Below are positions 2,937 to 31,044 of a DNA stretch of 62,083 bases, in pieces. The stretch's first letter is position 1, and every line of letters begins with the position of its first letter. The notes beneath the pieces were generated by a model, which was not told the origin of the DNA, searched no databases, and saw only the letters and a list, made by a program, of their open reading frames with translations. The DNA comes from Acidimicrobiia bacterium (lineage in GTDB: Bacteria > Actinomycetota > Acidimicrobiia > Spongiisociales > JAENVV01), in contig JBFGJH010000013.1 in the NCBI GenBank assembly GCA_041577335.1, positions 1 through 62,083 on the forward strand. The letters run 5' to 3'. The position numbers were made by a program, and so were the translations under genes.

Positions 2937-2938
2937 GC

Positions 2939-7435: not shown

Positions 7436-8058
7436 CAGCTCGACTGGTCCTTCTGCGGCGGCTCAGGGGGGCGCAGCCCGACTCCCGCCGATGGTGTCCA
7501 TGCATCGATCCCGGTGTAGGCGGCTCTGCCTTGCGGTGATGTGGCCCGCATCCACCCATCGGCGTTGACGAGCTCTTGTAGGTTGGCGAGCGGATCGTTG
7601 GGGAACATGTGTGCCGGCGTGCCGTCTTCGCCCACCAACAGTTCGGTCTTCGTGTAGATGGCGTCCTCGCGGTTCGTCGTCGACATTTCGAAGAGCTGGG
7701 TCATGGTGATGGCCTCGGTCGGGCATGCTTCGACACACAATGCGCAGAAGATGCAGCGCAGCATGTTGATTTCGTACACAAACCCGTAACGCTCACCGGG
7801 GCTCACCGGCTGGTCTTCGGGGTTGTCGGCTCCTCGCACGTAGATGCACCGAGCCGGGCACGCACCGGCACAGAGCTCACACCCAATGCACTTCTCCATG
7901 CCGTCGGCATATCGGTTGAGGACATGGCGCCCGTGAAAGCGCGCCGGCTTCTCCCGAAACTCCTTGGGGTATTCCTGGGTGATCGCCCCTTTCCCGAACA
8001 CGGTGTCGATCATTCGCCGAAACGTGACCGCCATGCCCTTGGCGAAATCTGTCAGCAT
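7435..8058 (-). CDS. nuoI: NADH-quinone oxidoreductase subunit I
   Basis: Two CxxCxxCxxxCP motifs ([24 protein letters not shown]). Confidence 0.96.
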
Positions 8059-8071
8059 CGTCCTCTCCCTG

Positions 8072-9166
8072 TCATGCCCAAGGCAATCCGAATGTGCGAA
8101 CAGCGAGTACCAGCGTCGACAAGATCAACCAGGCGAGCGCCACGGGAATGAGGCGTTTCCAGCCGAGCTCCATGAGCTGGTCGTATCGCATTCGTGGCAG
8201 CGACGCTCGCAGCCAGATGTACACGAAGATGAGAACAAAGACCTTGGCGAAGAAGTAACCGATCGAAAGCAGCGTCGCCGGAATGCCATCGAGCTGGTCG
8301 AGGAAGGGCCCTCCCCAGCCACCAAGGAACAAACTGACGCCGATCGCCGACATCGTGAACATGTTGACGTATTCCGCCAGGAAGAACAGCGCGAAACGCA
8401 TGCCCGAATACTCGGTGTGAAAGCCACCCACGATCTCCTGCTCAGCTTCTACGAGGTCGAACGGAGCGCGGTTCGTTTCGGCCACGGCCGCGATCGCGAA
8501 CACGACGAACGGGATGAACAATGGAAGGATGTTCCACCGGGGAATGAAGCCTGCCCAGGTTCCTTGTTGCTGCTCGATGATCGAGACGACAGACAATGAG
8601 GCTTCTCCGCCTCCGGTGCGAGTGAGGGCCGTGTACATGGCGACCGATACGAGGGCCAAGCCCATGGCTGCCTCGTACGAGATCGCCTGAGCGGTGGCCC
8701 GAACGCCGCCCAGCAGCGGATACTTCGAGCCCGACGACCAGCCGGCCAGAACGATGCCGTAGACGGCAGTCGACGACACGGCCAGGATGAATAACAGGCC
8801 CACGTTGAGATCCATGGCATTGAGTGTGATCACCCGAAGTCCCTCCGACGTCTGCACGGTGAACGGCCGGCCAATCGGGATGACCAGGAACAGGAGGAAG
8901 GCCGTGATGACCGACAGTGCTGGAGCCAGGAGGTACGCCCCCAACTCGGCTTTCTTCGGGGTGATTTGTTCTTTGAAGAAGAGCTTGAGGCCGTCGGCCA
9001 CCGTCTGGAGGATGCCGTGCGGGCCGGCCCGCATCGGCCCGAGTCGATCTTGCATGTCGGCGACGACTTTGCGTTCGACCCACACGAGGAGAACTGTGAC
9101 GTTGAGTAGCAACCCGAAGATCGCCACGGTCTTTCCGAAGGTCAGCCAGAAGTCGAATTGATCCAT
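8072..9166 (-). CDS. nuoH: NADH-quinone oxidoreductase subunit H
   Basis: [38 protein letters not shown]. Confidence 0.97.
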
Positions 9167-11577: not shown

Positions 11578-12887
11578 CCTTCGCCTCCGATTGTGACGGG
11601 AACCTGGTTGGCCGATCGGGCGTAAGCCTCGGCCTCGTCTCGGAAGTGTTCGAGGATCGACTTCACTGCCGAAACGGCCGATGGCCCCAGAGGGCAGATC
11701 GTGGTCTGCTTGGGAGGCCATCCGAGCCCGATCGAAATGCCATCGGAGACGTCGTGCAGAAGGTCGAGGTCGACCTCCCGGCCGCCACCATTCAGCATCC
11801 TCTGCAGGATCATGTCGAGCCAGGTCGTGCCTTCTCGGCAGGGGGTGCACTGGCCACACGATTCCTCTGCAAAGAACCGGACGAGTCGTTCCGCGGCGGC
11901 AACGACGTTGGTCGTGTGGTCCATCACGATGATCGCGCCCGAACCAAGCATCGACCCGGCCGCGGCACAATCGGCCTTGGTTATGGGATCATCGAGGTGG
12001 AGGCTAGGCACGAACCAGGGAGCCGAGGCGCCTCCCGGGATCCACGCCTTCAGGTCGTTGTCGTCGCGAATTCCACCTGCGACATCGTAGATGAGTTCGC
12101 GCCAGGTGATTCCGTGGGGAAGCTCGTAGTTGCCGGGTTTCTTCACGTGCCCCGAGACGGAGGCGAGGAACGTGCCCGTGTCTTCGCAGGCACTGAGCTC
12201 CTTGTACCACTCGGGGCCGTGGTTGATGATATGCGGCAGATTGGCGATCGTCTCGACGTTGTTGACAATGGTGGGCATCATGTAAAGGCCCTTGGCGGCG
12301 GGGAAATAGGGAGGCTTGAGCCGAGGCTCACCGCGCTTTCCCTCCAGCGAATTGAGAAGGGCGGTCTCTTCACCGCAGATGTAGGCGCCGGCTCCGAGGT
12401 GGACCGTGACTTCGAGGTCATAGTCGGTCCCGAATATGCCTTTGCCGAGCAGGCCTTCGGAGTAGGCATCATCCACGGCCTGCTGCACGCGGCGGGCCGG
12501 TTTGGGGTATTCGCCTCTGATGTAGATGAAGGCTTCGTGCACTTCGTTGGCAAACGCGGCGATGATGATGCCCTCGATGAGCTGGTGCGGGTCGCGTTCG
12601 AGAAGCTGGCGGTCTTTGAAGGTACCCGGCTCCGACTCGTCGCCGTTGACGACCAGGTAGGAGGGCCGCGGTGGGGCAAGAAACGACCACTTCATGCCGG
12701 TCGAGAACAACGCTCCTCCTCGACCGATGAGGCCCGAATCCTTCACGATTTCGACCAGCTCGTCGCGGGTTTTGGCCAAGGAGGCTTTGGCCGCCTCATA
12801 ACCACCCGAGGCGACATACCGCTGGTACGTGTGCGAATCGGAGGGATGCTCCTCCATCAGCTTGGTGATCACCTTCGGATAGCTCAC
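11574..12887 (-). CDS. nuoF: NADH-quinone oxidoreductase subunit F
   Basis: GRGGA, NGDESEPGTFKDR, GAGAYICGEETAL, ESCGQCTPCREG; GTG start overlapping the nuoE stop. Confidence 0.96.
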   Translation of the reverse strand: MSYPKVITKLMEEHPSDSHTYQRYVASGGYEAAKASLAKTRDELVEIVKDSGLIGRGGALFSTGMKWSFLAPPRPSYLVVNGDESEPGTFKDRQLLERDPHQLIEGIIIAAFANEVHEAFIYIRGEYPKPARRVQQAVDDAYSEGLLGKGIFGTDYDLEVTVHLGAGAYICGEETALLNSLEGKRGEPRLKPPYFPAAKGLYMMPTIVNNVETIANLPHIINHGPEWYKELSACEDTGTFLASVSGHVKKPGNYELPHGITWRELIYDVAGGIRDDNDLKAWIPGGASAPWFVPSLHLDDPITKADCAAAGSMLGSGAIIVMDHTTNVVAAAERLVRFFAEESCGQCTPCREGTTWLDMILQRMLNGGGREVDLDLLHDVSDGISIGLGWPPKQTTICPLGPSAVSAVKSILEHFRDEAEAYARSANQVPVTIGGEG

Positions 12888-13519
12888 GAACCTCTCCCTG
12901 GCTCGAGTGCGGGACTGTTCTCGGCTGCGGTACCAAACGGCGGAAACGCCGGGTAAGGGCCAACGGCGGCGTTGTCCTCCTTGATCGCCCAATCAAAGCT
13001 CGTCCGGCCTCCGAAGAGGGTCTGCATCTCGTCGGTGTTGATCGTCTCAGGCTTGCCGTTCCGCAGCCATTGGACCAGCTCCGTTGCCTTCTCTGCGCTC
13101 AGCCCCTCGATGAGCTCATAGTTGACCAAACAAGCCGGAGCGCCGCCACAAGCACCGATGCACTCGGCGTGTTCAACGGCGATCTCTCCGTCGGTCTCAC
13201 CGGCCGGCACTCCCGACGCCTGCTCCAAGGCCGCCAGCACGTCATCTGCCCCCATCAGGAAACACGAGATGGAGGTGCACATCGAGATGAGGTACTTGCC
13301 GATGGGCTCCTGTTTGTACATCACATAGAACGACGCCACCGATTGGACTTGGGCGGGCGTGATCCCGATGAGCTCGGCCACCGTCCGCATCCCCTCTTCT
13401 GAGAGGTAACCGTCCTCCCGCATGGCGAGGTACAGCATCGGCATCAGCGCCGATCGTCGATCGGGGTACTTGGAGATGATGGCGTCGGCGCGCTCGAGCG
13501 TCTCAGGAGACCAGGTCAC
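12884..13519 (-). CDS. nuoE: NADH-quinone oxidoreductase subunit E
   Basis: VASFY, CTSISC...CIGAC 2Fe-2S ligands; start taken at GTG (VTWSPE). Confidence 0.93.
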   Translation of the reverse strand: MTWSPETLERADAIISKYPDRRSALMPMLYLAMREDGYLSEEGMRTVAELIGITPAQVQSVASFYVMYKQEPIGKYLISMCTSISCFLMGADDVLAALEQASGVPAGETDGEIAVEHAECIGACGGAPACLVNYELIEGLSAEKATELVQWLRNGKPETINTDEMQTLFGGRTSFDWAIKEDNAAVGPYPAFPPFGTAAENSPALEPGRGS

Positions 13520-13644
13520 GGTCTGCTCCTGCGGAGCAGCATGCAGTATGCTGCTCCTTCTGAGCTCCGTGATCCGACAGGTCCGGTCGCAGTTTCGTAG
13601 GACGAAACTGCAATCCGATGACACGAATCGAAGATTCGTGTCAT
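13516..13644 (-). repeat. MIRU-like hairpin insert with a 42-codon coupling ORF between nuoD and nuoE
   Basis: Several inverted repeats (e.g. CCGATGACACGAATC-GAA-GATTCGTGTCATCGG); the ORF starts at ATGA on the nuoD stop and ends at GTGA on the nuoE start. Confidence 0.65.
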
Positions 13645-14999
13645 CGGTCGACGTCCCCCATCACCGGATCGAGACTCGCCAGAGACGCCACTGTGTCAGC
13701 AACGAGTGAGTCGGCCAGCAAGATCGGGATCGACTGGAGGTTGGCAAACGAGGGCGCCCTGGTGTGCATCCGGAGCGGTCGGCTACCACCGTCCGAGACC
13801 AGGTAGCAGCCGAGCTCGCCGCGAGGAGACTCGATGGCAACATACGTCTCGCCTTCCGGCACCTTGAAACCGTCGGTATGGATCTTGAAGTGGTGGATCA
13901 ATGCTTCCATCGACTCGTCGATTCGTTTGCGAGGTGGAGGCACCACCTTGCGGTCGTCAGTCTTGTAGTCGCCAGGCGGCATCGAGTTGGCCACCTGGCG
14001 GACAATGCGCAGAGATTCATGGATCTCGTTCACTTTGACGCGGTATCGATCGTACGAATCGCCGCGACTCCCCACGGCGACGTCGAATTCGTACTGTTCG
14101 ATGCCGGAGTAGGGCATCAGCTTGCGAAGGTCGTGGGCGTAGCCGGTGGATCGCAACGTTGGCCCGGTGATGGAGTAGGCAAGGCACTCTTCGGTGGTGA
14201 TGACGCCCACATCGCGGGTGCGGCGCAGCCAGATGGGATTCGCCTTGAGCAGGTCGTCATAGTCGGCGAGCTTGCCTGGCATGGTGTCGAGGATTTCCTC
14301 GACGTCGTCCTCCCAGTCGGGTGGGAGGTCGGCGGCCAAACCTCCCGGGCGAATGAAGTTGTGGTTCATCCGCAGCCCGGTCGTCTTCTCGAAGAATGCC
14401 AGGATCATCTCTCGCTCCCGGAACCCGTACAGCATCATGGACAGCGCCCCGACGTCCATGCCATTGGTCGCCAAGGCCACGAGATGGCTCGAGATGCGAT
14501 TCAGCTCCGTGAGGAGTATCCGCATTGCTTGGGCGCGTGGGGGGATATCGATTCCGAGTAGCTGTTCCACGGCCAGCGAAAAGCACAATTCGTTGTGCAG
14601 CGGCGCCAGGTAGTCCATGCGAGTGACGTTGGTGGGGCCCTGCATGAAAGTGAGAGTTTCGCCGGTCTTCTCCATTCCGGTGTGCAGATAGCCGATGATC
14701 GGCTTGACACGTCGCACGATTTCGCCCTCTAGCTCGAGATGGAGCCGCAACACACCGTGGGTTGACGGGTGTTGCGGGCCCATGTTGATGATCATGCGAT
14801 CGTCCTCGTCGATGTCTTCTTCGTAGAGGACGTCGTCGACAATCCGAGTTCCGAGCTGTTCCTTGAGCCGCTCTGCCGTTTCCTCGGGTCGCATGCTCTG
14901 ACGGCCTTCGGAGGTGCCTTGCACCATCCACGCCGGATCAGGTTCTTCGGTCCCGCTGACCCATACGACTTCTTCTCGCGTGTCTTTGGTGTCGGTCAT
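13641..14999 (-). CDS. nuoD: NADH-quinone oxidoreductase subunit D
   Basis: NMGPQHPSTHGVLRL, GYLHTGMEK, ESPRGELG, DPVMGDVDR. Confidence 0.96.
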   Translation of the reverse strand: MTDTKDTREEVVWVSGTEEPDPAWMVQGTSEGRQSMRPEETAERLKEQLGTRIVDDVLYEEDIDEDDRMIINMGPQHPSTHGVLRLHLELEGEIVRRVKPIIGYLHTGMEKTGETLTFMQGPTNVTRMDYLAPLHNELCFSLAVEQLLGIDIPPRAQAMRILLTELNRISSHLVALATNGMDVGALSMMLYGFREREMILAFFEKTTGLRMNHNFIRPGGLAADLPPDWEDDVEEILDTMPGKLADYDDLLKANPIWLRRTRDVGVITTEECLAYSITGPTLRSTGYAHDLRKLMPYSGIEQYEFDVAVGSRGDSYDRYRVKVNEIHESLRIVRQVANSMPPGDYKTDDRKVVPPPRKRIDESMEALIHHFKIHTDGFKVPEGETYVAIESPRGELGCYLVSDGGSRPLRMHTRAPSFANLQSIPILLADSLVADTVASLASLDPVMGDVDR

Positions 15000-15544
15000 C
15001 AGGTCACCTTGTTCGCTTCTTTGAACTGAACGGGCACGTCTCCGACGCCGAAGTCCTTGCGAAGTGGGTGTCCTTCCCACTCATCCGGCATCAAGATCCT
15101 GGTCAAGTCCGGATGGCCTTCGAATGTGATTCCGAACATGTCGTAGACCTCGCGCTCGAAGAAATTGGCGCCGGGATACACGGGAACGAGGGAGGGGATG
15201 GTCGTGTCGTCGGCGGGCACGGGGCACAGGACCCGCACGCGGAGGCTGTGAGCAATGGAGAGAAGGTTGGTGACGACCTCAAAACGGATGCGACGCACCC
15301 GGAGGTAGTCGACGGCGGTGAGGTCGGCGAGCATCTCAAATCCTGCCTCGTGCGCCGCGTGGGCGAACTCGGCCTGCCGCTCCTTGGGTAAAACTACGAC
15401 GTGTTGACCGTGCGACAGATGCCAGTGCGCATCGTCGAACGCCGCCACGAGCGCAGCGAGAATCGGCGGCTCCGGCAGCGGGCGCGGCGCGACTGCATCG
15501 ACTGAAGGCTCCACGTCGCTCGGTTCGATGGTCTCGTCAGACAC
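14999..15544 (-). CDS. nuoC: NADH-quinone oxidoreductase subunit C
   Basis: [32 protein letters not shown]. Confidence 0.96.
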
Positions 15545-16010
15545 GCGCCAGCTCCCCGCTCATGATCTTGTCATGAAGAGTCAGAATCCCGTGCATGAGC
15601 GATTGTGGTCCGGGCGGGCACCCAGGAATGTAGATGTCGACAGGCACGATCTGGTCGACACCTTGCACGAGCGCGTAGTTGTTGAACATGCCACCGGAGG
15701 AGGCACAGGCACCCATCGAGATCACCCATTTGGGCTCCGGCATCTGGTCGTATACCTGGCGGAGCACCGGCGCCATCTTCTGGGATACACGGCCGGCGAC
15801 GATCATGAGGTCGGCTTGGCGGGGCGATGCTCGGAACACCTCCATGCCGAAGCGAGCCAAATCGTAATGGGCGGTGCCGGTGGCCATCATCTCGATGGCA
15901 CAACACGCCAATCCGAAGGTGGCAGGGAACATTGATCGAGTTTGCGCCCATCGGGCAACCTTGTTGATGGACGCCGTGAGAACCCCCGGCACCTGGGGTG
16001 TGTCTGCCAT
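15537..16010 (-). CDS. nuoB: NADH-quinone oxidoreductase subunit B
   Basis: [25 protein letters not shown]. Confidence 0.97.
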
Positions 16011-16441
16011 CAGGCAGCCTCGACCGGAGACATCTCGGGCTCGATGCTGTCCTGGACACGCCGCTCACGTAGCGGAACATTCCAGTCGAGTGCGCCTCTC
16101 CCCCACACGTACAAGAGCGTTCCCATGACCAACAGAGTGAAAATGAAGATCTCGAGGACGCCTTTCCACCCGAACGACGGGTCAGGGAACACGACGGCCC
16201 ACGCAAAGAGGAAGATGATCTCGACATCGAAGATCACAAACAGCATCGCGACGAGGTAGAACTGGATCGGGAAGCGGTGCGTGGGCTCGACCTCGGGCAC
16301 GATGCCGCACTCGTAGGGTGCGAGTTTCTCCGGTGTCGGGTTCTTGGGGGACATCACCCAGGAGAGAGACAGCGCGGCGATCACAAACCCAAGCGCTAGC
16401 AGGAACATGATCGCTATCGGCAAGTACGCCGGAAGGTCCAC
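16010..16441 (-). CDS. nuoA: NADH-quinone oxidoreductase subunit A
   Basis: [24 protein letters not shown]. Confidence 0.96.
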
Positions 16442-19986: not shown

Positions 19987-21252
19987 TCACGCCTTTGTGG
20001 GCACCCTCATTCGGTCGATGCCGGCGACTCGCACCAGGGTTTCGAGCGTGGTGTAAGCCCGCTTGCCGACACCCTTGTCCTCCTCTTCGAGGAGGTTGGC
20101 CATGACTTTCAGGACCCACTCCATCAGCGGTTTGGAGTGCAGGCCGGTATGCGCCAGGGTCCGCATCACCGAGGGGTAACCAATGGCTTTCACGAACACG
20201 CGCGCCATGCGGTAGTAGTCGCCGAAGACATCGTCCAAGTACGCCGGATAGCGCTGCAGCAGCGAAAGATCGTCGGCCGCAATGGCGTCAGCAATGAACC
20301 CGGCCGCGATCCGACCCGTCTCGTAGCCATAGGCGATTCCCTCACCGTTCCAAGGATTGATGGCGCCCATGGCGTCGCCGACGGTGACCCAACTGCTCCC
20401 GGCCCGGGGCCCCTTGGAGAAGCTCATGAGCAGCTTTCCGCCCTTCGGGTCGGTGAGCTGAGCGTCGTCGGAGAGCTCCCAATGCGCCGGTGCCGAGCGC
20501 ACATAGTCAGCCATCATCTTGGTGGTGTTGACGTCCTTCCAGTGTCGGAATGTCGACAACAGGCCCACTCCGACATTGACGGTCCCGTCGCCGAGCGGGA
20601 ACACCCACCCGTACCCGGGCATGGAGGCGCCGTTTTCGTCACGAATGTCGAGTTGGCTCTCCATGAACCCATCGTTGGACATCGGGGACTCGAAGTAGCC
20701 GCGCGCTGCCAGCCCGAGGGGGTAGTCCTTGTCGCGCACGGTTCCCATCGCTCGTCCGAACCTGCTGGTTGATCCGTCGGCGATCACGACGACCCGTCCG
20801 CCGATCTGTTCGACATCGTCTCCAACCGCGAGCTCGACGCCGGCGAGCTGACCGTCCACCATCCAGGGTGTCGCGGTCGTGCCCTGGCGGATCACCACGC
20901 CTTCCTTCTCGGCGAGGAGGGCGACGGAATGATCGAGGTCGAGGCGCCGAATCACACCTCCCCAACTCGGGTACCTGGAATGATCGGGCCACTCCATCTC
21001 GAGGTGCAGCGTGTCACCTGCATAGCTACGAAGGCCGACGATCTTGTGAAACTCTGCTGCACCGAAATCAAACCCCATCTGATCGAGCTCGTAGATCGAT
21101 CGAGGGGTGAGCCCGTCGCCGCAAGTCTTCTCACGAGGATATTCGGACTTCTCGACCATGAGAACGGTGAGGTCGCGGCGGGCCGCCCAGAAGGCTGCCG
21201 AGGCACCGGCCGGCCCCCCTCCCACAACAATGACATCAAAGGTTGTGCGCAT
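19987..21252 (-). CDS. Geranylgeranyl reductase family protein (MenJ-like menaquinone reductase)
   Basis: GGGPAG FAD motif, PREKTCGDGL, GYGWVFP, GDAMGAINPWNGEGI; position upstream of nuo as in other actinobacteria. Confidence 0.85.
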   Translation of the reverse strand: MRTTFDVIVVGGGPAGASAAFWAARRDLTVLMVEKSEYPREKTCGDGLTPRSIYELDQMGFDFGAAEFHKIVGLRSYAGDTLHLEMEWPDHSRYPSWGGVIRRLDLDHSVALLAEKEGVVIRQGTTATPWMVDGQLAGVELAVGDDVEQIGGRVVVIADGSTSRFGRAMGTVRDKDYPLGLAARGYFESPMSNDGFMESQLDIRDENGASMPGYGWVFPLGDGTVNVGVGLLSTFRHWKDVNTTKMMADYVRSAPAHWELSDDAQLTDPKGGKLLMSFSKGPRAGSSWVTVGDAMGAINPWNGEGIAYGYETGRIAAGFIADAIAADDLSLLQRYPAYLDDVFGDYYRMARVFVKAIGYPSVMRTLAHTGLHSKPLMEWVLKVMANLLEEEDKGVGKRAYTTLETLVRVAGIDRMRVPTKA

Positions 21253-21293
21253 GCTCAAATCCTACCGGGGCCGGTGCGATGTCGTGACTCGGC

Positions 21294-21920
21294 TCACCGC
21301 GCGTGGACCGAGTAATACGACAGAATCTGCAACTCGGTCGCCAGGTCGACGTTTCGCACCCTGGTAGTGGAAGGAACTCGAACGACGACCGGTGCGAAAT
21401 TCAGGATCGAGCCGACGCCGGCTGTCGTGAGCAGATCGGCGGTTTCCTGAGCCGCTGAGGCAGGAGTGGCGATGACGCCGATGGATACTCCGTTGCTTTC
21501 CACATCACCGGGAATATCAACAAGCGCCTGCACCGTCAGACCACCGAGCGGCTGCCCGATCTTGGATGGGTCGGCGTCGTAGACACCCACGACCCGATAC
21601 CCCGACGATCCAAAGCCACCGTAATTGGCGAGCGCAGATCCCAAGTTGCCGGCGCCGACGATCACCACGGGCCAATCTTCGGTGAGGCCCAGTTCCTTGC
21701 GGATCAAAAGGCAAAGTTGTTCCTTGTCGTAGCCGACGCCCCGCACACCGTGCGAGCCGAGATAGGAGAGGTCTTTGCGAACCTTGGCGGAGGTGACGCT
21801 GGCGATGTCTGCCAGGGTTTGGGAGGAAACGGTTGCCGGACGGCCAGGAAGCGACTCGAGACATTGCAGGTACACAGGTAGGCGAGCCACGGTCGCCCTC
21901 GGAATTGTGATCCTTTTCAC
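21294..21920 (-). CDS. rex: Redox-sensing transcriptional repressor Rex
   Basis: IPRATVARLPVY, VRKDLSYLG..GVRGVGY, GAGNLG, ILNFAP. Confidence 0.95.
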   Translation of the reverse strand: MKRITIPRATVARLPVYLQCLESLPGRPATVSSQTLADIASVTSAKVRKDLSYLGSHGVRGVGYDKEQLCLLIRKELGLTEDWPVVIVGAGNLGSALANYGGFGSSGYRVVGVYDADPSKIGQPLGGLTVQALVDIPGDVESNGVSIGVIATPASAAQETADLLTTAGVGSILNFAPVVVRVPSTTRVRNVDLATELQILSYYSVHAR

Positions 21921-21922
21921 AA
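21905..21922. promoter_or_regulatory. Rex operator overlapping the rex start codon
   Basis: TTGTGATCCTTTTCACAA, one mismatch to TTGTGAA-N4-TTCACAA. Confidence 0.75.
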
Positions 21923-21964: not shown

Positions 21965-22327
21965 TCAGGCCTCGAGCTCCCGGTTCTGTTCCGCCTCATA
22001 CCGGTTCAGCGCAACGAGGAACATGGCAAACAGAATGACGCACGCCAGCATGAACGTGAGCGGAAGGATGCGGATCTCGAACGCATTCAGACCCTCGAAG
22101 TCGGTGGGCCGAGGCCCCCGAGGCGCATACAGCACGAAGAGCAGCGAATTGAGAACGCCCCAACCGAAAACACCGGCTCCCGCAACGAGGAACCCGAGCC
22201 GCTTGCCGAGGTTCGTGGCGAGGATGAGGTACCCGGAGCCGAAGAATACGATCATCGACACCACGAACAGGAAGATGCCCGTGAACATGAGGTTCTGCGA
22301 CAGGATGTCGCGCATGAGCTCTCGCAT
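21965..22327 (-). CDS. Small 3-TM membrane protein, last gene of the Rieske/cyt b operon
   Basis: Hydrophobic helices; start overlaps the cytochrome c stop. Confidence 0.75.
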   Translation of the reverse strand: MRELMRDILSQNLMFTGIFLFVVSMIVFFGSGYLILATNLGKRLGFLVAGAGVFGWGVLNSLLFVLYAPRGPRPTDFEGLNAFEIRILPLTFMLACVILFAMFLVALNRYEAEQNRELEA

Positions 22328-23748
22328 CAGCGAAGCACCTCGCCTCTCAGGTATTGGATAACCAGGTCCAGGTCACTTTCGGATAGGACCTGTCCGAATC
22401 CGGGCATGAACCCTCGCCCGATTCCATTCACTCCGTAACCCTTGCCGACTTCGCTACCCATGCTCAGGAACTCCTTCATCTGAGCTTCGTCGAGGAACTG
22501 GACGTTGGCCCGGCCATCCCAGAGAGCCGGGCCAAGGGCGCCTGACCCAACAGGTTGAGCGAACGCGGGACCCTCGGAGTAACCCGAGGTGTGGCATCGA
22601 GCGCACTGCGACTGGAAAATGCCGACAGCGCGAGTGGCATCATCGAGATTGCCGTCGAATGTGGCGTCCGCCACCGCCTGCAAGTCGATTGCGTAGAGTC
22701 GCTCTGCCCTCGCTTCCTCCAGAAATGCGAGACCTTCTTCGGCCGTGGCCAGGATGGCGTCTTTGCGGTCGACGGTGATTTGTAAGCCGGTCAACCGGGA
22801 TTCGAGAGCCGCCACCCATGTGGAGGCCGTCTGCGAGTCGGATGCTCCGGTCGGGTCGCTGGCCGGATTGCGCGGATCCAGGACCACCGCGGCCAGCGAG
22901 GGGTCGATAGCCGCAACCTGCTCGGCCAGCGCAGCCAGTTCGGTCTCGGCCCGGTCGGTTACCCCGTCCTCATCGACATCAACACCGCCGGCGTCATCGA
23001 GGACGCTGCGAGCGCGCTCAGCCAAGGGCTGGAGCGCAGCCACCAGAGCCGGGGCTTCCTCGACGGTGCGAATCAATTCTCGCTGAGTTTCGATCTGGGC
23101 GTCAACGCTGTCATCAGCACCGGCGAGGCTGGACAGGGCAAGGTCGACAGACGTCTCGACATCGGCGACGACCTGCGACTGGGGCACCTGAATGGATCGC
23201 AGATACGCGATGACCTCGTCGATCTGCTGTTCGTTCATGGGCCCGCCACCCTCCAGGCCCCACGGTGGCATCGGAGACCCGGCCCGACCGTTCACGAGCC
23301 AGAACCGCACCTCGTCTTCGTCATAGCGATAGAAGATGTCGGTGAGATTGGGCGCGATCCACGAGACCTCCACGCCAGACCGAACATCGATATACCCGGC
23401 GACACCGCCGTTCAGAGCGGCTCCGTGACAGTCGCCGCATGCAAACTCGATGACGTGCTCGTGGCCCCGCTCCACCGCTTCGTCCGAGAACTGTTCTACA
23501 AAGCCTTCTTGGCGATCGAGTTCACCAAGCCAATAGACCGGCAGGGAGATCGCCAGGAGGCCGGAGAGAATCACAGCAACCGACAACACACGGTCGAGCC
23601 GCCTGCCCTCCAGCTCGGCGTCGGTTTTGAATGGGTCCAGATTCGGAGGTACTTCGTCTTTCGTGCGACCGCGTATGCCGGCGGCCACGAGCACGCCGAG
23701 CCACCCCAGGGCGCCGAGCGCCACGACGACGATGACGATGCTGCTCAC
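22327..23748 (-). CDS. Membrane-anchored di-heme c-type cytochrome
   Basis: CGDCH and CARCH, each with a downstream MP Met ligand; two N-terminal TM helices. Confidence 0.9.
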   Translation of the reverse strand: MSSIVIVVVALGALGWLGVLVAAGIRGRTKDEVPPNLDPFKTDAELEGRRLDRVLSVAVILSGLLAISLPVYWLGELDRQEGFVEQFSDEAVERGHEHVIEFACGDCHGAALNGGVAGYIDVRSGVEVSWIAPNLTDIFYRYDEDEVRFWLVNGRAGSPMPPWGLEGGGPMNEQQIDEVIAYLRSIQVPQSQVVADVETSVDLALSSLAGADDSVDAQIETQRELIRTVEEAPALVAALQPLAERARSVLDDAGGVDVDEDGVTDRAETELAALAEQVAAIDPSLAAVVLDPRNPASDPTGASDSQTASTWVAALESRLTGLQITVDRKDAILATAEEGLAFLEEARAERLYAIDLQAVADATFDGNLDDATRAVGIFQSQCARCHTSGYSEGPAFAQPVGSGALGPALWDGRANVQFLDEAQMKEFLSMGSEVGKGYGVNGIGRGFMPGFGQVLSESDLDLVIQYLRGEVLR

Positions 23749-23750
23749 GC

Positions 23751-24653
23751 CTACCCTTCCTCGGGAGCGCTGATGGTGATACAGCTCGGACCCAACGGGT
23801 AACTCGCGTTCTTGATCTGGGCACGTTCGGTGGCGATCACTTGACTGGTCCTGATGATGAAATCGTTGTTCTCGTCGACTTCAACGACAAACCGATCGAG
23901 GTTGCGCGGAGCCGGGCCGGACTCGTATTCGCCCAGAACGTTGTACTTCGACCCATGGCACGGGCATTCGAACCCTTGCGAATTCTGGCACCAGGGCACC
24001 CGACAACCGAGGTGCACACACCGCTGCCAGATCGCCATGAGACCCCCGGCGACTGTGGCGTTCTCTTCGAACTGGGATCCCGCTTGCTGATCGGGACCCA
24101 CCGGCACAACCCACGCCTTTGCTTCGGGAATGAACGCCGGCGTGATGGAGCCGTCCGGATTGACCACCGAAGTGAGAATCTCCGCGGCGTCGCCGGCGTC
24201 GATATCGGCACCGAAACCACCTTTGATGCGCGGCCACAGGAACCCGAGGCTGGCCAGCCCGAAGATCCCCAGCGCAGAGAAGAAGGTGCCGGCCATGGCC
24301 CGGTTCAAGAACTGGCGGCGCAAGACACCGGCTTCTTCCGGATCGATTTCGACGACGCGTCGCGCTTCGACGGCTTGGACCGGAGCGGCCACCTCAACCA
24401 CCGGCTCGGTGACGGGCTCGACCTCGAGAGTTGCCTCCTCGACGACGTCGACAGAAGTCTCGCGATGGGCGGCGGCGGTGGCGGCCGCGACGCCGGCCGG
24501 GACCCCGGCGTCGGCTGTCCGGGCGTCCTTCTCGAGGTTCTTGCGCCACTCCTCGTCTTTGGCGCTCTGGCGGAAGGCGATGCCGAACGCCGCCAGCGCT
24601 GCCAACAGAAGTGCGCCTGCCAGGAGAACGAAGATCAACTCATTCGTCGTCAT
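23751..24653 (-). CDS. Rieske 2Fe-2S subunit
   Basis: CVHLGC and CPCHGS boxes, GPAPRNL; internal twin-arginine LRRQFL. Confidence 0.95.
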   Translation of the reverse strand: MTTNELIFVLLAGALLLAALAAFGIAFRQSAKDEEWRKNLEKDARTADAGVPAGVAAATAAAHRETSVDVVEEATLEVEPVTEPVVEVAAPVQAVEARRVVEIDPEEAGVLRRQFLNRAMAGTFFSALGIFGLASLGFLWPRIKGGFGADIDAGDAAEILTSVVNPDGSITPAFIPEAKAWVVPVGPDQQAGSQFEENATVAGGLMAIWQRCVHLGCRVPWCQNSQGFECPCHGSKYNVLGEYESGPAPRNLDRFVVEVDENNDFIIRTSQVIATERAQIKNASYPLGPSCITISAPEEG

Positions 24654-25537
24654 TCGAAATCCACCCAGTCTTTGAGGTCGTCAAAGAAGATCCCGTCGGC
24701 CCACGGATACGTCCAGTTGAAGCCAGGCCCTCGAAACAGCACCCCGATGATCGTGAGAACGGCAGATCCCATGATGAAGAAGGTGTACAGAAAGATGGCG
24801 TACTTGCGGTCGGCCGGCTTGTTCGACGGATTGCGATCGACGTACGGGATCGCCATGAAACCGAGCATCCCGATGATGGTCGGGACCGTGACACCGGCGA
24901 TTTGCGGATCGAAGTACGACAGCAACTCCTGCAAACCGAGGAAATACCAGGGCGCCTTGGACGGATTTGGTGTGGCGTTGAAGTTGGCTGCTTCCAACAG
25001 CGGCGCCTGCAAGATAACCGAAAGAACAATGAGGACGGCGGTGACTGCGAGGAGCGAAGCGAACTCGGCGATCATGAGGTGGGGCCAAGTGTTGACCTTG
25101 TCGGTCGGCTCGGCCTTCACCTGCTGGATGGCCTTGGCCTTCACCACCGTCAGAAGCCGCTGGGTGCGCACTCCCTCTGGCCCAGCCTCGGATGGCACCG
25201 AGGGACGAGGTGATACCGACGTCGCAACCCGACCTCCGTTGCCTGAACCGTTCGGGGGCTCGGGAGCGGGCGACGGCGGCTCTTCGACCGCGACAGCTGC
25301 GGCGGCCGGCTCAGCGGCTGCGGCCGGCACCTCAGGTTCGGGATCGGGCACGACCACTTCGGGGGCTGGAGCGGGCTCGGGAGCGGCTTCCGGCTCAGGC
25401 GGCGTGGGTGCGGCAGCAACCGGCGTGGGCGGCGCCTCGCCACGCATCTCCGCGAGCACCTGTTCGACAGGCAGGCCGAGGGCCTTCGCCTTCGCCTCTG
25501 CCGATCGCTGTAGGAGATGTTCAGGTATATCAGCCAT
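24650..25537 (-). CDS. Cytochrome b C-terminal half (subunit IV/PetD-like) with N-terminal extension
   Basis: TPNPSKAPWYFLGLQELL (PEWY-equivalent), IPYVD; start MADIPEH. Confidence 0.88.
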   Translation of the reverse strand: MADIPEHLLQRSAEAKAKALGLPVEQVLAEMRGEAPPTPVAAAPTPPEPEAAPEPAPAPEVVVPDPEPEVPAAAAEPAAAAVAVEEPPSPAPEPPNGSGNGGRVATSVSPRPSVPSEAGPEGVRTQRLLTVVKAKAIQQVKAEPTDKVNTWPHLMIAEFASLLAVTAVLIVLSVILQAPLLEAANFNATPNPSKAPWYFLGLQELLSYFDPQIAGVTVPTIIGMLGFMAIPYVDRNPSNKPADRKYAIFLYTFFIMGSAVLTIIGVLFRGPGFNWTYPWADGIFFDDLKDWVDFE

Positions 25538-25545
25538 AGGTACTC

Positions 25546-26334
25546 CTAGAGCGGACCCGAGATTCCGCCATCCTTGCGGACCCGCCAGAAATGAACGGCC
25601 ATGAAGATGACGATGATGAATGGGAGTAACAAAACGTGCCCGACGTACCAACGCAAGATGGTGTCAGCCGACACCTCCAGGGATCCCAGCATGGCGAACT
25701 TCACTTGGTCACCAAAGACAGGCACGAAGCCGGCCATGTTCGTTCCAACCGTCACGGCCCATAGAGCTAGCTGGTCCCATGGCAACAGATAGCCGGTGAA
25801 CGACAGGAGCAAGGTCAGCAGCAGGAGAATGACGCCTACGACCCAGTTGAACTCGCGGGGCGGCTTGTACGCGCCGTGATAGAAGACGCGAGACATGTGC
25901 AGGAACACCGTCAACACCATGAAGTGGGCGCCCCAGCGGTGCATGTTGCGAACGAGTGAGCCGAATGCGACGGACGTAGACAGCTCCTGCATGTCGGCGT
26001 AGGCGGATTCGACCGTCGGCGCGTAATAGAACATCAGGAAGATCCCGGTGATCGTCAGGAGAATGAACAGGAAGAAGCTGAGGCCACCCAAGCACAATGT
26101 GTACGAAAGGCGGACACCGTGGCGCTTCACCTTGACCGGGTGCAGGTGGTAGAGCACGTTGTTCATGATGACGTATGACCGGTTCCGGGGAGAGTCGGAA
26201 TAGCCCTTCTTGAACGGAGAGCCGGGGCGGAGCACGGACTCCATGACCTGGCTCGCATGCACGCGGCTCCACGCATCAGAGGCGGCGTTCTTCGCCCGAT
26301 CCATGAGCTTCGTCTGTTCTTTGTCGTTCGCCAA
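25546..26334 (-). CDS. Cytochrome b N-terminal half (cytochrome b6-like)
   Basis: [37 protein letters not shown] heme His set. Confidence 0.93.
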
Positions 26335-26342
26335 GGGTCCCC

Positions 26343-26795
26343 CTACATCCGCAGCCCGTAGACATAACCGTTCTTGTGATCTCGTTGACCTGTGTCGACG
26401 TCCCAGGGTGCCGGCACACCTGCCTGGGTGGCTTCAGCCGAGAGTGAGCCTTCGAATTTACCGAGGGTGATGACGCCGGTGGGGCAACGATCGATACAGA
26501 GCGCGCAGCGCGTGCATTCGTTCTCATCGACCAGAAAAAAGCCCTTGGCGTCCGGGTCGGAGTGTGGGTCAGCGACTCCCTTGGCCTCTTGGATCGCATC
26601 GAGAGACAGGTAGTGAATGCACTTCCACGGACATATGTCGACGCATCCTTCGCACAGGATGCACTCGGACTGGTCGATGTGCAGAAACTGCTTTGGCTTG
26701 ACCTGAGCGATGAGGTAGTCGCCCTCGACGATGGCGAGCTGATAATCGTCTCGGATTGGAGGGGTCTCGAACCACGCGTCGCGGGCACTGGCCAT
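26343..26795 (-). CDS. 2[4Fe-4S] dicluster ferredoxin
   Basis: [12 protein letters not shown] and [12 protein letters not shown]. Confidence 0.92.
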
Positions 26796-27436
26796 CAGCG
26801 GCTGCCCTTCATGAGCGGACGGCCATACGGGGACAATTTCGGCTCCTCGACAGCTTTCGGCTCAGTCTTGCCAAAGTCCTGAACCTTGATCGCGAAGAAG
26901 ATGGCCGCACCGAGCACAGCCATGTTGTAGGTGATCGAAACGACGTCTTTGACCGCTGCAAAACTGATCGCTACGTCGTTGTTGAGCAGCAGAAACGAAA
27001 GTGAGTCCGGGAGCGAGAAGAACTCCTTTTGGGCCGTCCACGACAGCGGGCCCTGCGAGAGGTTGAGCCACTCAGAAGGAATGATCCCGAAATACAGGAC
27101 GAACTGGAACCAGGTCACGAATGCCGTGAACCCGGCACGCGCCCACGTCATCGGCTTACCGATGACCGCCAACAGAAGGACACCGACGACAATCATCTGT
27201 GAACCGGTCACCGCGACGAGTTGGCCGAGGGTCACAGAAGCCCAATGCCTGGGGATGTTGCCGAGGAACGTGTCAACCACGACATCGATCTCGACGCCGT
27301 CAACGAACTCGGTCTTGGGAAACAGGGCGTAATGGGCCCACAAGATGCCGAGCGCCAAAGCCACAGTGCCGATCGAAAGAAGAGCGAAACCGCCGATCCT
27401 TCTCTTGGAGTCGTCGAGTTGTGCCAGTCGGTTCAT
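26795..27436 (-). CDS. Membrane protein, first gene of the Rieske/cyt b operon
   Basis: About 4 TM helices; C-terminal SPYGRPL; stop overlaps the ferredoxin start. Confidence 0.75.
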   Translation of the reverse strand: MNRLAQLDDSKRRIGGFALLSIGTVALALGILWAHYALFPKTEFVDGVEIDVVVDTFLGNIPRHWASVTLGQLVAVTGSQMIVVGVLLLAVIGKPMTWARAGFTAFVTWFQFVLYFGIIPSEWLNLSQGPLSWTAQKEFFSLPDSLSFLLLNNDVAISFAAVKDVVSITYNMAVLGAAIFFAIKVQDFGKTEPKAVEEPKLSPYGRPLMKGSR

Positions 27437-27732
27437 CGTCTCGAGTCTCTCACGGGACCGCGCCCGGCCCGGCCTGCTGCTTCCGGCTTCCGGATCAGCC
27501 GCCCTGACTGGTCCGTGTCCAGGAGATTACTAGCACAATCACTCTCGAACACTGAAACCTTCGGATTGATGTCTTCGACACCGCCGAGGAGCGATCTCTG
27601 CCTCAAATCCGGTACCGTGGGTACGACCGACGGCGAGTCTCAACCCATTATGCTTTCGACGTCGTTGCGCGTGAGTGGCGCAGAGACCGACGAAGAAGAC
27701 GGCCTCGACAGCAACCAGGCAAGGAGCGCAGA

Positions 27733-29151
27733 TTGGCTGCGACATCTGAACCGACTCGACCCCTCGCCGATCTCGATTCTGCTGCGCGCAGCCACATGCT
27801 CATCGGCCTGGCATTTCTGGCGATGGCGGCAGTCTTTGGCCTGTTGGCTGCGCTGAAGCTCGCCTATCCGTCCTTCGGGGCAGCGACACCGTTCCTGTCG
27901 TACGGTCGCCTCTGGCCGATGGCGATGAACACGCTCGTGTTCGGATTCCTGACATTCTCGAATATCGCAGCCGCTTATTTCCTCATCCCGCGACTGATGG
28001 GCGCTCGGTTGCGGGGAGAACGCCTTGCCCGCCTCGCCGCCGGGCCCGGCGCAGTCATCACTGCATTGGCCATCGTCCTCGTCGGTGCGGGACTCACTCC
28101 CAACCAGGGTCGGGTGCTCGGCGAGTTCCATGTCGGCTTCGACGTCGCCCTCATTCTCTTCTATCTCGTCCCACTATTCATCTGCCTTCGCACGGTTGCG
28201 GACCGGACCGTCGAATCGATCTTCATCTCGGTGTGGTACATCCTCGGCGGGCTGCTCTGGCTCGTCGGACTCATGGTCGTCGGCCTCAACCCATGGATCG
28301 GTGGCGTCGGTTCGGCACTGCTGGGGTCCTTCTACAGCGCCGGCCTCATCGGCCTGTGGTCCGTGGGCGTTGGCATCGGTGCGGCGTATTACGTCGTGGT
28401 TCGCACGACCGACAACCCGCTCTTCTCGCGGAGCCTTGCCTTGGCGGGGTTCTGGTCGCTGGCCTTCGCCCAGGTTTGGACTGGCCCAGCATCCTTGATC
28501 TTCGGCGCTGCCGCCGAGTGGATCGAGACCATCGCAGTCGTGTTCACTCTGGGGATGATCATTCCCGCTTTGGCTGTGCTCGCCAATTTCATCGGCACCA
28601 TCCAAGGTAAATGGGCATTGGTGCGCGAGCGGTCCGATCTTCGCTTTGCAATAGTGGGCGCGGTGGTCGCGGTTTTCCTGTCACTCGTCACGAGTGCGCA
28701 AGGCTTTCGGTCAGTCGCAGTCGTAACAGGCCAAACCTCCTTCGGGCCGGCTACCCAGACGGGACTCCTCCTGGGCGTCGCTTCGTTGTATTCCGCGGCA
28801 TTCCTCTACTACGCCCTCCCCCGGGCCTTCGGGCGCACGCTCTTCTCAGAGTCGCTCGGCCGGCGCCAGCTGCAACTCACGCTGTGGGGGGTTGGTGGGC
28901 TGGTCTTGTCCATGTGGGTCGGAGGGCTGGCTGCCGGCTACACATGGCTGAGCGGCTCATACACCGGCGCCTTCGCCAGTGTCGGTGAGGGCTTCGTCAA
29001 CACGCTCAACGCCACCGGGCCTTTCCGGATCTCGGCATTCATTTTCAGCTTCGTTGTCGCTGCCGCCCAGCTCACCTTCGTTGTGAACATGTACCGCACA
29101 GTGACGAGTGGCGCGGCCGCTCCTCAAGAGGTCTTGGTGACGGCTCAATGA
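27733..29151 (+). CDS. CcoN (cbb3 oxidase subunit I)-like protein lacking His ligands
   Basis: About 12 TM helices; LSYGRL.P, FISVWY, PLFSRSL..GFW, WTGP resemble the CcoN scaffold; only 2 His in 472 aa. Confidence 0.8.
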   Translation: MAATSEPTRPLADLDSAARSHMLIGLAFLAMAAVFGLLAALKLAYPSFGAATPFLSYGRLWPMAMNTLVFGFLTFSNIAAAYFLIPRLMGARLRGERLARLAAGPGAVITALAIVLVGAGLTPNQGRVLGEFHVGFDVALILFYLVPLFICLRTVADRTVESIFISVWYILGGLLWLVGLMVVGLNPWIGGVGSALLGSFYSAGLIGLWSVGVGIGAAYYVVVRTTDNPLFSRSLALAGFWSLAFAQVWTGPASLIFGAAAEWIETIAVVFTLGMIIPALAVLANFIGTIQGKWALVRERSDLRFAIVGAVVAVFLSLVTSAQGFRSVAVVTGQTSFGPATQTGLLLGVASLYSAAFLYYALPRAFGRTLFSESLGRRQLQLTLWGVGGLVLSMWVGGLAAGYTWLSGSYTGAFASVGEGFVNTLNATGPFRISAFIFSFVVAAAQLTFVVNMYRTVTSGAAAPQEVLVTAQ

Positions 29152-29960
29152 GTGATCTCGCCGCAGCTGCTGCCGCCGTCGGTGGCCCTGAGGACCTCGT
29201 GATGCGGTCCGCCCGCGCCCGAGCCGAGGCAACCGGTGTGCCAGTCGAGGAAGTCTTGGCGGCCTGGGCAGGCGGCGGCTCTGCTCCCGCCGCGACTGCC
29301 GCGCCGGCGACTCCTGCGCCGGCAGAGGCCGAGCTCGAGGAGCAGCTCTCGCCTACACCCCCGGCCGGCGCCGTCGTCGATGAAATGCCCCGCACCGAGC
29401 CCCCTGACATGGCAACGCCGGCAACGGCTGGGCCCGTCGTCGTGGTGGACCAGCGCAAGGGCGCGGCTCCTCTGCTCACCGGGCGGACGGACCGCCCCAT
29501 GTTGTATCTCGCCGGCATCGCACTCCTCTTCATCATCGGAGCCGTTGGCGCCGTGGCGCTGCCGGCCCGCGACGCTCAGGCGGTCGCCGCCGATCAGATC
29601 CCGGGCACGACCCCGATCCTCAGCGAACTCGGCGAAGAGGGACGTCAGGTCTACATGCAGGAGGGCTGCTTCTACTGCCACACCCAGCAGGTGCGGACGG
29701 TCGTCACCGACGTCGGGCTCGGTACGGTCACCGAACCGGGAACTTCCCCTGCCTTGCCGGGCGACACGTTCGGGTATCAGCGGCTCGGGCCCGACCTCAC
29801 TCATGTGGGAAGTCGCGAGCCGACCAACGACGCGGCGTTCCTCCGCACATATCTGCGGGACCCCCTGGGCGTGGTCGACCGGAGCGACCACGCGAGCTTT
29901 GCCTACCTTTCCGATGCCGACCTCGACAGCCTCGTGCAGTACCTGATGGAGTCCCAGTGA
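29148..29960 (+). CDS. CcoO (cbb3 subunit II)-like monoheme cytochrome c
   Basis: GRQVYMQEGCFYCHTQQVR, RLGPDL..VG motifs; one TM helix. Confidence 0.88.
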   Translation: MSDLAAAAAAVGGPEDLVMRSARARAEATGVPVEEVLAAWAGGGSAPAATAAPATPAPAEAELEEQLSPTPPAGAVVDEMPRTEPPDMATPATAGPVVVVDQRKGAAPLLTGRTDRPMLYLAGIALLFIIGAVGAVALPARDAQAVAADQIPGTTPILSELGEEGRQVYMQEGCFYCHTQQVRTVVTDVGLGTVTEPGTSPALPGDTFGYQRLGPDLTHVGSREPTNDAAFLRTYLRDPLGVVDRSDHASFAYLSDADLDSLVQYLMESQ

Positions 29961-29961
29961 T

Positions 29962-31044
29962 ATGAGCGACTATCTCGCAGCAGCCGCATCCGCCGTCGGC
30001 GGGCCGGAGGATCTGGTCATGCGCTCTGCGCGTGCGAGAGCCGAAGCCGCCGGGGTACCGGTCGATGACATCTTGCGAGCCTGGGCGGGTGGCGAGGCAG
30101 CCCCGGCCGGAGCGGCCGCTCAAGCGAGTCCCGAGGCGAGTGACGAGCCAGTTCCAACCGACCCAGTCGAGGTCGCGGAGGCGCCGGCGCCCGAGCCTGA
30201 CAGCACCGAACCTTCCGGAGAACCGGTCCCGGTGGCAGCCGGCGCACCAACTCGGACGGTACAGGGGCCCCCACCCCCGGCAACGGTCACCACGAGTGAA
30301 GCAACCGAGTACGACATGGTCACCACGGTTCCATCGGTCGGCTTGAAGGAGCGCACCAATTCAATCGTGCCGGGCTGGCTGATGGCCTTCTTCGTGATCA
30401 TCCCGATCCTGGCCGTCGGTTATATCACCACCGGGTCTGGCGGCCCGCAATGCGGCGAGGCCGGCCAGCTGGCCGTCGACTTCCGCAACGAACTCGTGAA
30501 CTGCGATCTCACGGCCTATGAAGGCGCCGGCGGGCCGGGCGGCGGTGGCGCGACCAACTTCGTAGCCCTGGGCGGCGAGGTCTACGAAGCCAACTGTGCT
30601 GCCTGCCATCTGTCGAACGGCGGCGGAGGCGCAGCAGGTCCGGCTCTGAGCGGTGGGGCGGTGGTGGCGACGTTCGGGTCGTGCGCCGATCACGCAACGT
30701 GGGTGACTTTGGGAACCGCCGGTTGGACGGCCGAGATCGGAGCGACCTACGGCGACACCAACAAACCGACCGGTGGCTTTGGCAACATGCCAGGATTCGG
30801 AAGCCTGACCGAGGAGCAGATCCAGTCGGTAGCTCTCTTTGAGCGAGTGGTGTTCGGTGGTGCCAATGCCGACGAAGCTCTCGTGGATTGCGGTCTCGTG
30901 GCGACGGCCGACGGAGAAGCACCCGCCGATGGTGAGGCACCTGCGGACGGCGAAGCGCCCGCCGACGGGGAAACACCACCGGCCGAGGGCAACACACCCA
31001 CGGAAACCACCATGGCCCCGGCCGCAGCCCCTGCCACCGAATAG
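29962..31044 (+). CDS. Membrane-anchored monoheme cytochrome c
   Basis: CAACH, GPAL, NMPGF; C-terminal ADGEAP repeats. Confidence 0.85.
   Translation: MSDYLAAAASAVGGPEDLVMRSARARAEAAGVPVDDILRAWAGGEAAPAGAAAQASPEASDEPVPTDPVEVAEAPAPEPDSTEPSGEPVPVAAGAPTRTVQGPPPPATVTTSEATEYDMVTTVPSVGLKERTNSIVPGWLMAFFVIIPILAVGYITTGSGGPQCGEAGQLAVDFRNELVNCDLTAYEGAGGPGGGGATNFVALGGEVYEANCAACHLSNGGGGAAGPALSGGAVVATFGSCADHATWVTLGTAGWTAEIGATYGDTNKPTGGFGNMPGFGSLTEEQIQSVALFERVVFGGANADEALVDCGLVATADGEAPADGEAPADGEAPADGETPPAEGNTPTETTMAPAAAPATE

Follow-up and report, generated by a model that had tools for sequence, protein, structure and literature searches.

The window considered here is a stretch of 62,083 nt (positions 1 to 62,083) of contig JBFGJH010000013.1 of an Acidimicrobiia bacterium (assembly GCA_041577335.1). 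Two respiratory operons lie back to back in it; their divergence, already noted in a preliminary description of this DNA, is confirmed and falls across the intergenic region 27437-27732. The minus-strand operon is of the Rieske/cytochrome b (bc) type and encodes, in this order, a 213-aa membrane protein, a 2x[4Fe-4S] ferredoxin, PetB, PetD, a Rieske protein, a dihaem cytochrome c and a small transmembrane (TM) protein. All 13 loci that were mapped in the class have this gene order, as far as each locus is covered. The plus-strand operon encodes a CcoN-like protein, a CcoO-like cytochrome c and a membrane-anchored cytochrome c (Table 1). Of major interest is an N-terminal segment, termed the tag, that is shared by the PetD-like protein and both plus-strand cytochromes. 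The tag is a real and class-wide module, so far undescribed, and probably of a docking type.

The three tag segments are found in the window exactly as first quoted, and their consensus, PE-x-L-x2-RSA-x-A[RK]A-x-A-x-G[LV]PV[ED]-x-[VI]L, matches exactly these three among 59,930 six-frame open reading frames of the genome. Comparison of P-anchored 29-mers gives 17/29 identities between PetD and CcoO, 14/29 between PetD and cytochrome c, and 24/29 between CcoO and cytochrome c. None of 200,000 composition shuffles equals any of these counts. Of 39 codons compared between the copies of CcoO and cytochrome c, 22 show synonymous and 6 non-synonymous differences, which points to conservation, or selection, at the protein level. 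Recent DNA duplication as the source of the similarity within the window was considered and is rejected by the same codon differences. Each tag is followed by a long Pro/Ala/Glu linker ahead of the first TM helix, as previously stated; the linkers measure 88 residues in PetD, 69 in CcoO and 83 in cytochrome c, with a Pro+Ala+Glu content of 67%, 51% and 50%, respectively. A strong Shine-Dalgarno-like AGGAG is present upstream of the PetD start.

Some features of the first account needed enlargement. The cytochrome c gene is where it was placed, but it continues past position 30100, where the locus had been closed, and occupies 29962-31044(+). The segment described is real, but the full module is ∼44 aa and has an additional first helix in CcoO and cytochrome c. 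All three carriers also hold, but they are four in this genome: a hidden Markov model (HMM) built from the three segments detects a fourth copy at E 1.7e-17 (runner-up, E 0.45). This fourth carrier, P4, is a seven-TM protein without family at G000:C64:15258-16391, outside the window, and its tag is likewise N-terminal.

Table 1. Genes, tags and linkers of the two divergent operons
Feature	Position	Strand	Remarks
120-aa three-TM protein, last gene of bc operon	21965..22327	-	
Dihaem cytochrome c of bc operon	22327..23748	-	two CxxCH
Rieske iron-sulfur protein	23751..24653	-	PF00355
PetD-like split cytochrome b subunit IV, APWY Qo motif	24650..25537	-	PF00032; NF040970 below cut-off
PetD linker, 88-aa Pro/Ala/Glu	25172..25435	-	
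Tag on PetD-like subunit IV, residues 1-33	25439..25537	-	core helix and helix 3, no helix 1
Cytochrome b6-like PetB	25546..26334	-	
2x[4Fe-4S] ferredoxin, putative tag partner	26343..26795	-	Fer4 families; ∼150 residues
213-aa membrane protein, first gene of bc operon, no family	26795..27436	-	
CcoN-like protein without the six His ligands	27733..29151	+	PF00115; alignment to 3mk7_A; start codon uncertain
CcoO-like monohaem cytochrome c, one TM helix	29148..29960	+	PF02433; start overlaps CcoN-like stop
Full three-helix tag of CcoO-like cytochrome c, residues 1-43	29148..29276	+	
Linker of CcoO-like protein, 69-aa Pro/Ala/Glu	29280..29486	+	
Membrane-anchored monohaem cytochrome c	29962..31044	+	PF13442, PF00034
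Full three-helix tag of monohaem cytochrome c, residues 1-44	29962..30093	+	
Cytochrome c linker, 83-aa Pro/Ala/Glu	30097..30345	+	

In CcoO, cytochrome c and P4, AF2 predicts three helices in the ∼44 residues of the module (5-12, 16-30 and 34-42), with a pLDDT of 92.6 and a pTM of 0.69 on a 39-row alignment. The first PetD tag copy lacks helix 1. Other orders mostly keep the core helix alone, I-P-x-H-L-L-x-R-S-x-x-A, in which P5, L8 and R11 are invariant (23 rows); a core-helix profile aligns to the centre of the long form with 97.7% probability. A single conserved helix, without flanking helices to bury it, suggests a partner. The placement of the tag on the cytoplasmic side is supported by the single-TM cytochromes, whose haem domain is C-terminal (predicted topology), and by soluble carriers described below; the tethered architecture is supported as well.

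The segment had not been recognised as part of canonical PetD, CcoO or CcoP, and no family in Pfam, NCBIfam or the PDB matches it, whether respiratory or unrelated. None of 39 modules scores above the Pfam cut-off (best E 0.018). A PDB sequence search yields designed helical repeats only (best E 0.0027 across 11 residues), Foldseek with the predicted module gives no match at E<=0.001 and the ESM Atlas no usable match. No clear natural match emerges from the fold searches; the best VIA-align match is a designed toroid (Z 5.2). No description of the tag, or of its core six letters, was found in the literature, most subscription journals and supplements being outside the scope of the search.

The best natural folds by VIA-align are EutV, NasR and Rv1626 (Z 4.0-4.3, rmsd 2.4-2.5, 45 aligned residues), presumably all ANTAR proteins. 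The ANTAR domain (PF03861) also has three short helices with similar spacing, and a degenerate ANTAR-like RNA-binding fold might be considered, or else a membrane-surface or localisation signal, neither with a protein partner. Either is highly improbable. The Z values are within the uninformative range of the tool, the module profile compared with 21 ANTAR domains reaches a probability of 0.45% and no ANTAR Pfam match occurs among the 39 members; an ANTAR search of the source genome found no match anywhere, with controls equally silent. The modules are also net acidic (mean charge -2.8), which disfavours RNA or membrane binding, and the tag sits on respiratory proteins and not on regulators.

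The distribution of the tag was surveyed in 151 genomes of the class and 277 other genomes of the phylum. The long profile matches 79/151 class genomes, including 37/39 of the same order as the source organism and 26/26 of a family, f16, with genomes of 0.9-1.1 Mb. Partly in the light of PMC12008989, the order is probably UBA5794 and f16 probably represents Actinomarinales. As the tag is kept in all 26 of these ∼1-Mb genomes sampled, it is probably important. The core profile matches 138/151, and the long profile adds genome G109 to give 139/151. Outside the class there is no credible match in the 277 genomes: eight are marginal (E 4.6e-4 to 7e-3), sit in unrelated or apparently off-frame open reading frames, and none is in PetD or a cytochrome. 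Orthologues in 40 of 41 relatives keep the tag. The unpublished genome G036 contributes to this tally and to alignments A6, A8 and A9, but no conclusion hangs on it alone.

Database names of relatives are mostly Acidimicrobiia. In a library of 1.84 billion representatives there are 454 matches, and among the best 150 of them 66 belong to the respiratory set and 84 are unassigned, mostly fragments or frameshifted. A second library search gives 1262 matches; the 120 listed consist of 102 PetD proteins, 7 cytochromes c, 4 small-TM hybrids and 7 fragments, with 2-7 tag copies each. Two entries labelled Gemmatimonadales and Desulfuromonadales resemble the PetD that is usual in the class, and are probably mislabelled bins.

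The preliminary description proposed an HMM search for co-occurrence, and among the 151 class genomes the tag does track the bc operon. Twelve genomes are tag-negative. In G093 and G100 the operon is broken at contig ends, where the ferredoxin is found, and their missing tags are therefore assembly gaps; G126 has lost the ferredoxin. Of the nine others, 0/7 searched have a PetD of this type and 0/6 searched have this ferredoxin.

The plus-strand operon was aptly named pseudo-cbb3. All six His positions of Pseudomonas stutzeri CcoN (3mk7_A), which we take to be the ligands of haem b, haem b3 and CuB, are substituted in the CcoN-like protein. None of 28 orthologues has His at the aligned ligand columns; the divergent sequences of f16 contain only 1-3 His altogether, one of which lies two positions away from one of the sites. 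Since no His is present at the six ligand positions, the CcoN-like protein is, on the evidence of its sequence, a scaffold for two cytochromes c and cannot be an oxidase. This conserved pseudo-oxidase is retained even in ∼1-Mb genomes.

The tags of CcoO and cytochrome c are 98-100% DNA-identical in 11/35 pairs, which is consistent with gene conversion and, at the sequence level, suggests interchangeable tags. Where CcoO is a separate gene, it and cytochrome c carry one tag each in 42/46 loci; frameshifted or masked frames are among the four loci that deviate. Seven loci, mostly kin, have a CcoN-CcoO fusion; CcoO is untagged in 7/7 of these and cytochrome c has 2-3 copies in 5/7.

P4 frames carry the module in 28/30 cases, the remaining two being short and probably cut, and a ctaG-like gene adjoins P4 in 14/30 loci. 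P4 is often encoded beside aa3-type oxidase genes. This is not so in the source genome, where P4 adjoins L001:11474-12979(-) (G000:C64:16473-17978), which we take to be an HNH-type gene. In genome G050, pseudo-CcoN (L198:10093-12237(-)) is fused to extra TM helices and a cupredoxin, and the TM stretch of the fusion resembles, by eye, the C-terminal half of P4. This pseudo-CcoN is clustered with cytochrome c biogenesis-like genes and with presumed aa3-type oxidase genes, labelled from sequence features, that lie between it and ccoO; ccoO and the tagged cytochrome c follow.

Tag copies number from 1 to 7 per protein, and hybrid membrane proteins that resemble the 120-aa protein of the bc operon (P0005, P0163, P0164, P0014) have 3-7 in tandem. 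AF2 folds both modules of a natural two-module tandem, with a pTM of 0.44, where ∼0.4 is estimated for independent domains. Tandem copies on low-complexity tethers could indicate that tags bind each other, either homotypically or by pairing of the two-helix PetD form with the three-helix form, in a sticker-and-spacer network without a separate hub. Conserved small residues that span ∼240 degrees of the central helix would fit such contacts, helix 1 missing from the PetD form could come in trans, and all carriers would be explained without extra assumptions. Self-association is nevertheless unlikely, as the lone short helix of most other orders would be a poor self-oligomer and the decay of the tag in the ferredoxin-less genome G126 is not predicted.

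The tag has also been gained by soluble proteins linked to ferredoxin or FeS chemistry. The alpha subunit of a 2-oxoacid:ferredoxin oxidoreductase (Pfam POR/POR_N) carries it as a fusion, at either or both ends, in 7 of the 25 f16 genomes having the gene. These seven genomes form one clade (support 98/98), so the fusion counts as one event, and in the same seven the PetD tag has Lys-Thr or Arg-Thr in place of Arg-Ser. The 18 other genomes examined keep Arg-Ser; two of these have truncated oxidoreductase genes and one has no match. A second soluble carrier, a small Nfu_N-like protein, ends in the core helix in 18/18 genomes of family f18, as at L314:1501-1941. Its assignment is marginal: against Nfu_N (PF08712, gathering threshold 27 bits) one of nine sequences passes (43.7), six fall below (14-22.5 bits) and two have no match, and the comparison with PDB 2ltm gives E 0.043. 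ESM Atlas returns only unnamed clusters for the fusion.

It might be proposed that this small class-specific Nfu_N-like protein is the receptor of the tag, acting as an adaptor that brings an FNR-like reductase to tagged complexes. The domain is found in 141/151 class genomes, including 26/26 f16, with only weak matches outside the class, in 7/277 genomes, and it is absent or weak in all nine genomes without tag and operon matches. In addition to its fusion with the tag in f18, it is fused to an FNR-like reductase in 8/15 f4 genomes (three fully read, five by coordinates). Such a receptor is improbable: a receptor would probably be blocked by a ligand fused to it, a single family accounts for five of the nine co-losses, and two genomes discussed below speak against it. 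The oxidoreductase (128/151) and FNR-like (27/151) genes do not co-vary with the tag. Fisher tests on these gene distributions overstate the associations, since related genomes do not count as independent, and no weight is placed on them. A stand-alone class-specific Nfu_N-like protein is encoded in the source genome at G000:C86:9588-9899(+) (L344).

Two natural experiments bear on the partner. In G126 the bc operon is contiguous and mid-contig and its first gene abuts petB; the ferredoxin gene is absent, and a search of this genome for ferredoxin gives one weak match only, in a 690-aa frame. With 11.0 bits, the PetD tag of G126 ranks last among 73 N-terminal regions of PetD (next 23.5, median 41.1; the set retains a few near-duplicates), and no tag match at E<=0.01 is found in the genome, although the Nfu_N-like gene is retained. 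Conversely, G118 (98% complete, 10 contigs) has the ferredoxin, with tags on PetD and cytochrome c, and no convincing match to the Nfu_N-like gene (best E 0.002, in a 1049-aa frame). G126 and G118, one genome each, thus point to ferredoxin rather than the Nfu_N-like protein as partner, as far as gene content and tag sequence go.

Some shared-partner docking role for the tag is probable. It is also quite possible, though it stops just short of being probable, that the tag is specifically a cytoplasmic docking tag for the 2x[4Fe-4S] ferredoxin of the operon, leashing it to the b6f-type complex and hooking other units to it. The core helix would dock on ferredoxin, which might be unbound or might sit on the b6f-type Rieske/cytochrome b complex at its cytoplasmic face, and the PetD tag would leash ferredoxin near the haem ci side. 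On both plus-strand cytochromes and on the aa3-linked P4, the tags could be flexible hooks, bringing the oxidase and the haem-less CcoN cytochrome-c module together around a ferredoxin-loaded complex III. On soluble carriers, the tag might recruit a ferredoxin-reducing enzyme or an FeS-related adaptor, and tandem copies would add avidity.

Ferredoxin as a common partner was already suggested in the preliminary description. The soluble carriers related to ferredoxin, and the ferredoxin-less G126 with the weakest PetD tag, support it indirectly. The six other tag-negative genomes tested, which are also without ferredoxin, favour it too, as do the near-identity of CcoO and cytochrome c tags and the tag numbers of these two proteins in split and fused loci. 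Of the supercomplex of Rieske/cytochrome b and pseudo-cbb3 that was envisaged, the term pseudo-cbb3 holds, but any such assembly would be wider in scope, because an aa3-linked membrane protein and soluble enzymes are also tagged.

Several points weigh against ferredoxin docking. We infer all of its elements, namely binding itself, ferredoxin as the partner and the clustering. G126 stands alone and belongs to another family that is not in the profile, so its low score could come from ordinary divergence, and its PetD retains a recognisable residual helix. The oxidoreductase, Nfu_N-like and FNR-like fusions represent one evolutionary event each, and the oxidoreductase gene is present in 8/11 tag-negative genomes. 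Periplasm-facing cytochromes have no electron-transfer reason to bind ferredoxin, which makes the hook step ad hoc. Several tags would compete for one site, and net acidic modules are no obvious match for an acidic ferredoxin. Prediction of a complex of full PetD, PetB and ferredoxin with one module carries no weight either way, at a score of 0.00 in two runs in which controls also remained unfolded.

In addition, both tag and ferredoxin track the operon, and co-occurrence therefore cannot separate ferredoxin from PetB or other subunits. The partner might then be another respiratory subunit at the cytoplasmic face, such as the PetB/PetD surface, complex I, the aa3 oxidase or a membrane scaffold. 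Since the tag co-occurs with the operon as a whole, each of the operon subunits would fit, the cytoplasmic N-terminal region of PetB is rich in invariant residues, and pseudo-cbb3 genes are interleaved with aa3-type oxidase genes in G050. A partner of this kind is nonetheless also unlikely: G126 keeps PetB, PetD, Rieske and others and yet has the most decayed tag, and such a partner accounts less directly for the tags of soluble proteins linked to ferredoxin.

A broader reading, doubtful at present, is that a multivalent tag on a ferredoxin hub organises the Acidimicrobiia respiratory chain from the cytoplasmic side, also in ∼1-Mb genomes, into a tethered patch. Complex III, the haem-less cbb3-derived module, aa3 oxidase and soluble ferredoxin-reducing enzymes would be its members, and low-potential electrons would pass into the quinone cycle. 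Known respiratory supercomplexes are held together by rigid subunit-subunit contacts. If the broader reading is true, the assembly would be of the sticker-and-spacer type and not a rigid supercomplex, and respiratory chains could then be organised in another manner, by a tag that is copied, multiplied and moved between membrane subunits and soluble enzymes. As a portable recruiter of ferredoxin, such a tag might also help to wire redox enzymes.

Other features of the bc operon and its surroundings were observed. PetB has the Cys that presumably serves as the haem ci ligand of b6f. In the order of the source organism and in f16, lineages with the three-helix tag, some 14 residues are inserted close to the C-terminus of the ferredoxin; other orders lack this insertion, and the coincidence may reflect shared ancestry only. 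A search of the divergent intergenic region revealed no sigma-70 site. Directly downstream of the operon is a rex-like gene, 21294-21920(-), whose start is overlapped by a near-perfect inverted repeat (21905-21922) that has one mismatch to what we take to be the Rex operator consensus; at three mismatches, two Rex-like sites are observed in the window and 0.94 expected. A geranylgeranyl-reductase-like flavoprotein (19987-21258(-)) and an apparently complete complex I (nuo) operon, including E, F and G-like genes (∼1476-16441(-)), are also found downstream. In the f16 genome G044 the bc operon is followed by L083:3312-4253(-), presumably an SPFH/band-7-like protein, whose homologue in the source genome is on another contig. 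G063 (L058, L107, L122, L126), of ∼1.1 Mb, has two distinct copies of the whole operon pair, by duplication or mixed assembly. A second, paralogous and tag-less APWY-type Rieske/cytochrome b operon occurs at L162 (G100:C243) and L306 (G027:C10); upstream is a long FeS-domain protein that looks like a flavoprotein fusion, and PetB and PetD are fused in G100.

Several known systems offer comparisons. The plus-strand operon resembles cbb3 oxidase in its homologous CcoN-like and CcoO-like subunits and in the gene order N-O-cytochrome c, but it differs in the missing His ligands, in NCBIfam scores that are all below cut-off and in profile matches that begin past the tag and linker. The bc operon shares with the APWY clade a split cytochrome b, the APWY Qo motif and a Rieske protein. 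That clade was defined by Kao and Hunte (2014; PMC4122944), who noted that none of its complexes had yet been characterised and who assigned the split cytochrome b of Ilumatobacter, like that of three Rubrobacteridae strains, to the APWY or the PEWY-cyt c clade. In the parts of that paper available, neither a tag nor a ferredoxin subunit is mentioned, and the tag may provide a handle on these uncharacterised complexes.

Docking domains on flexible linkers are not without precedent. The peripheral subunit-binding domain (PSBD, PF02817) is a ∼40-aa helical domain that tethers partner enzymes in the E2 component of 2-oxoacid dehydrogenases, and it resembles the tag as a small helical domain on Ala/Pro-rich flexible linkers. 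The likeness does not extend to sequence: 0/39 module members match PSBD/E3_binding at E<=1, and hhalign gives 3.5% against 12 PSBDs. In the fold comparison, PSBD is not among the 50 VIA-align matches listed. The PSBD is also confined to one scaffold subunit, whereas the tag is found on many, mostly membrane-bound clients in up to seven copies. The Rubisco-binding motif of the Chlamydomonas pyrenoid offers a further parallel. According to the portions of Meyer et al. (2020; PMC7673724) consulted, this short motif of several proteins, some at membrane tubules, binds a common hub that was shown experimentally, and is proposed to keep the sub-compartments together. The analogy is one of design only, as the systems are unrelated and the hub of the tag is a putative one; in some orders, moreover, the tag has gone beyond a short motif and become a folded domain of three helices.

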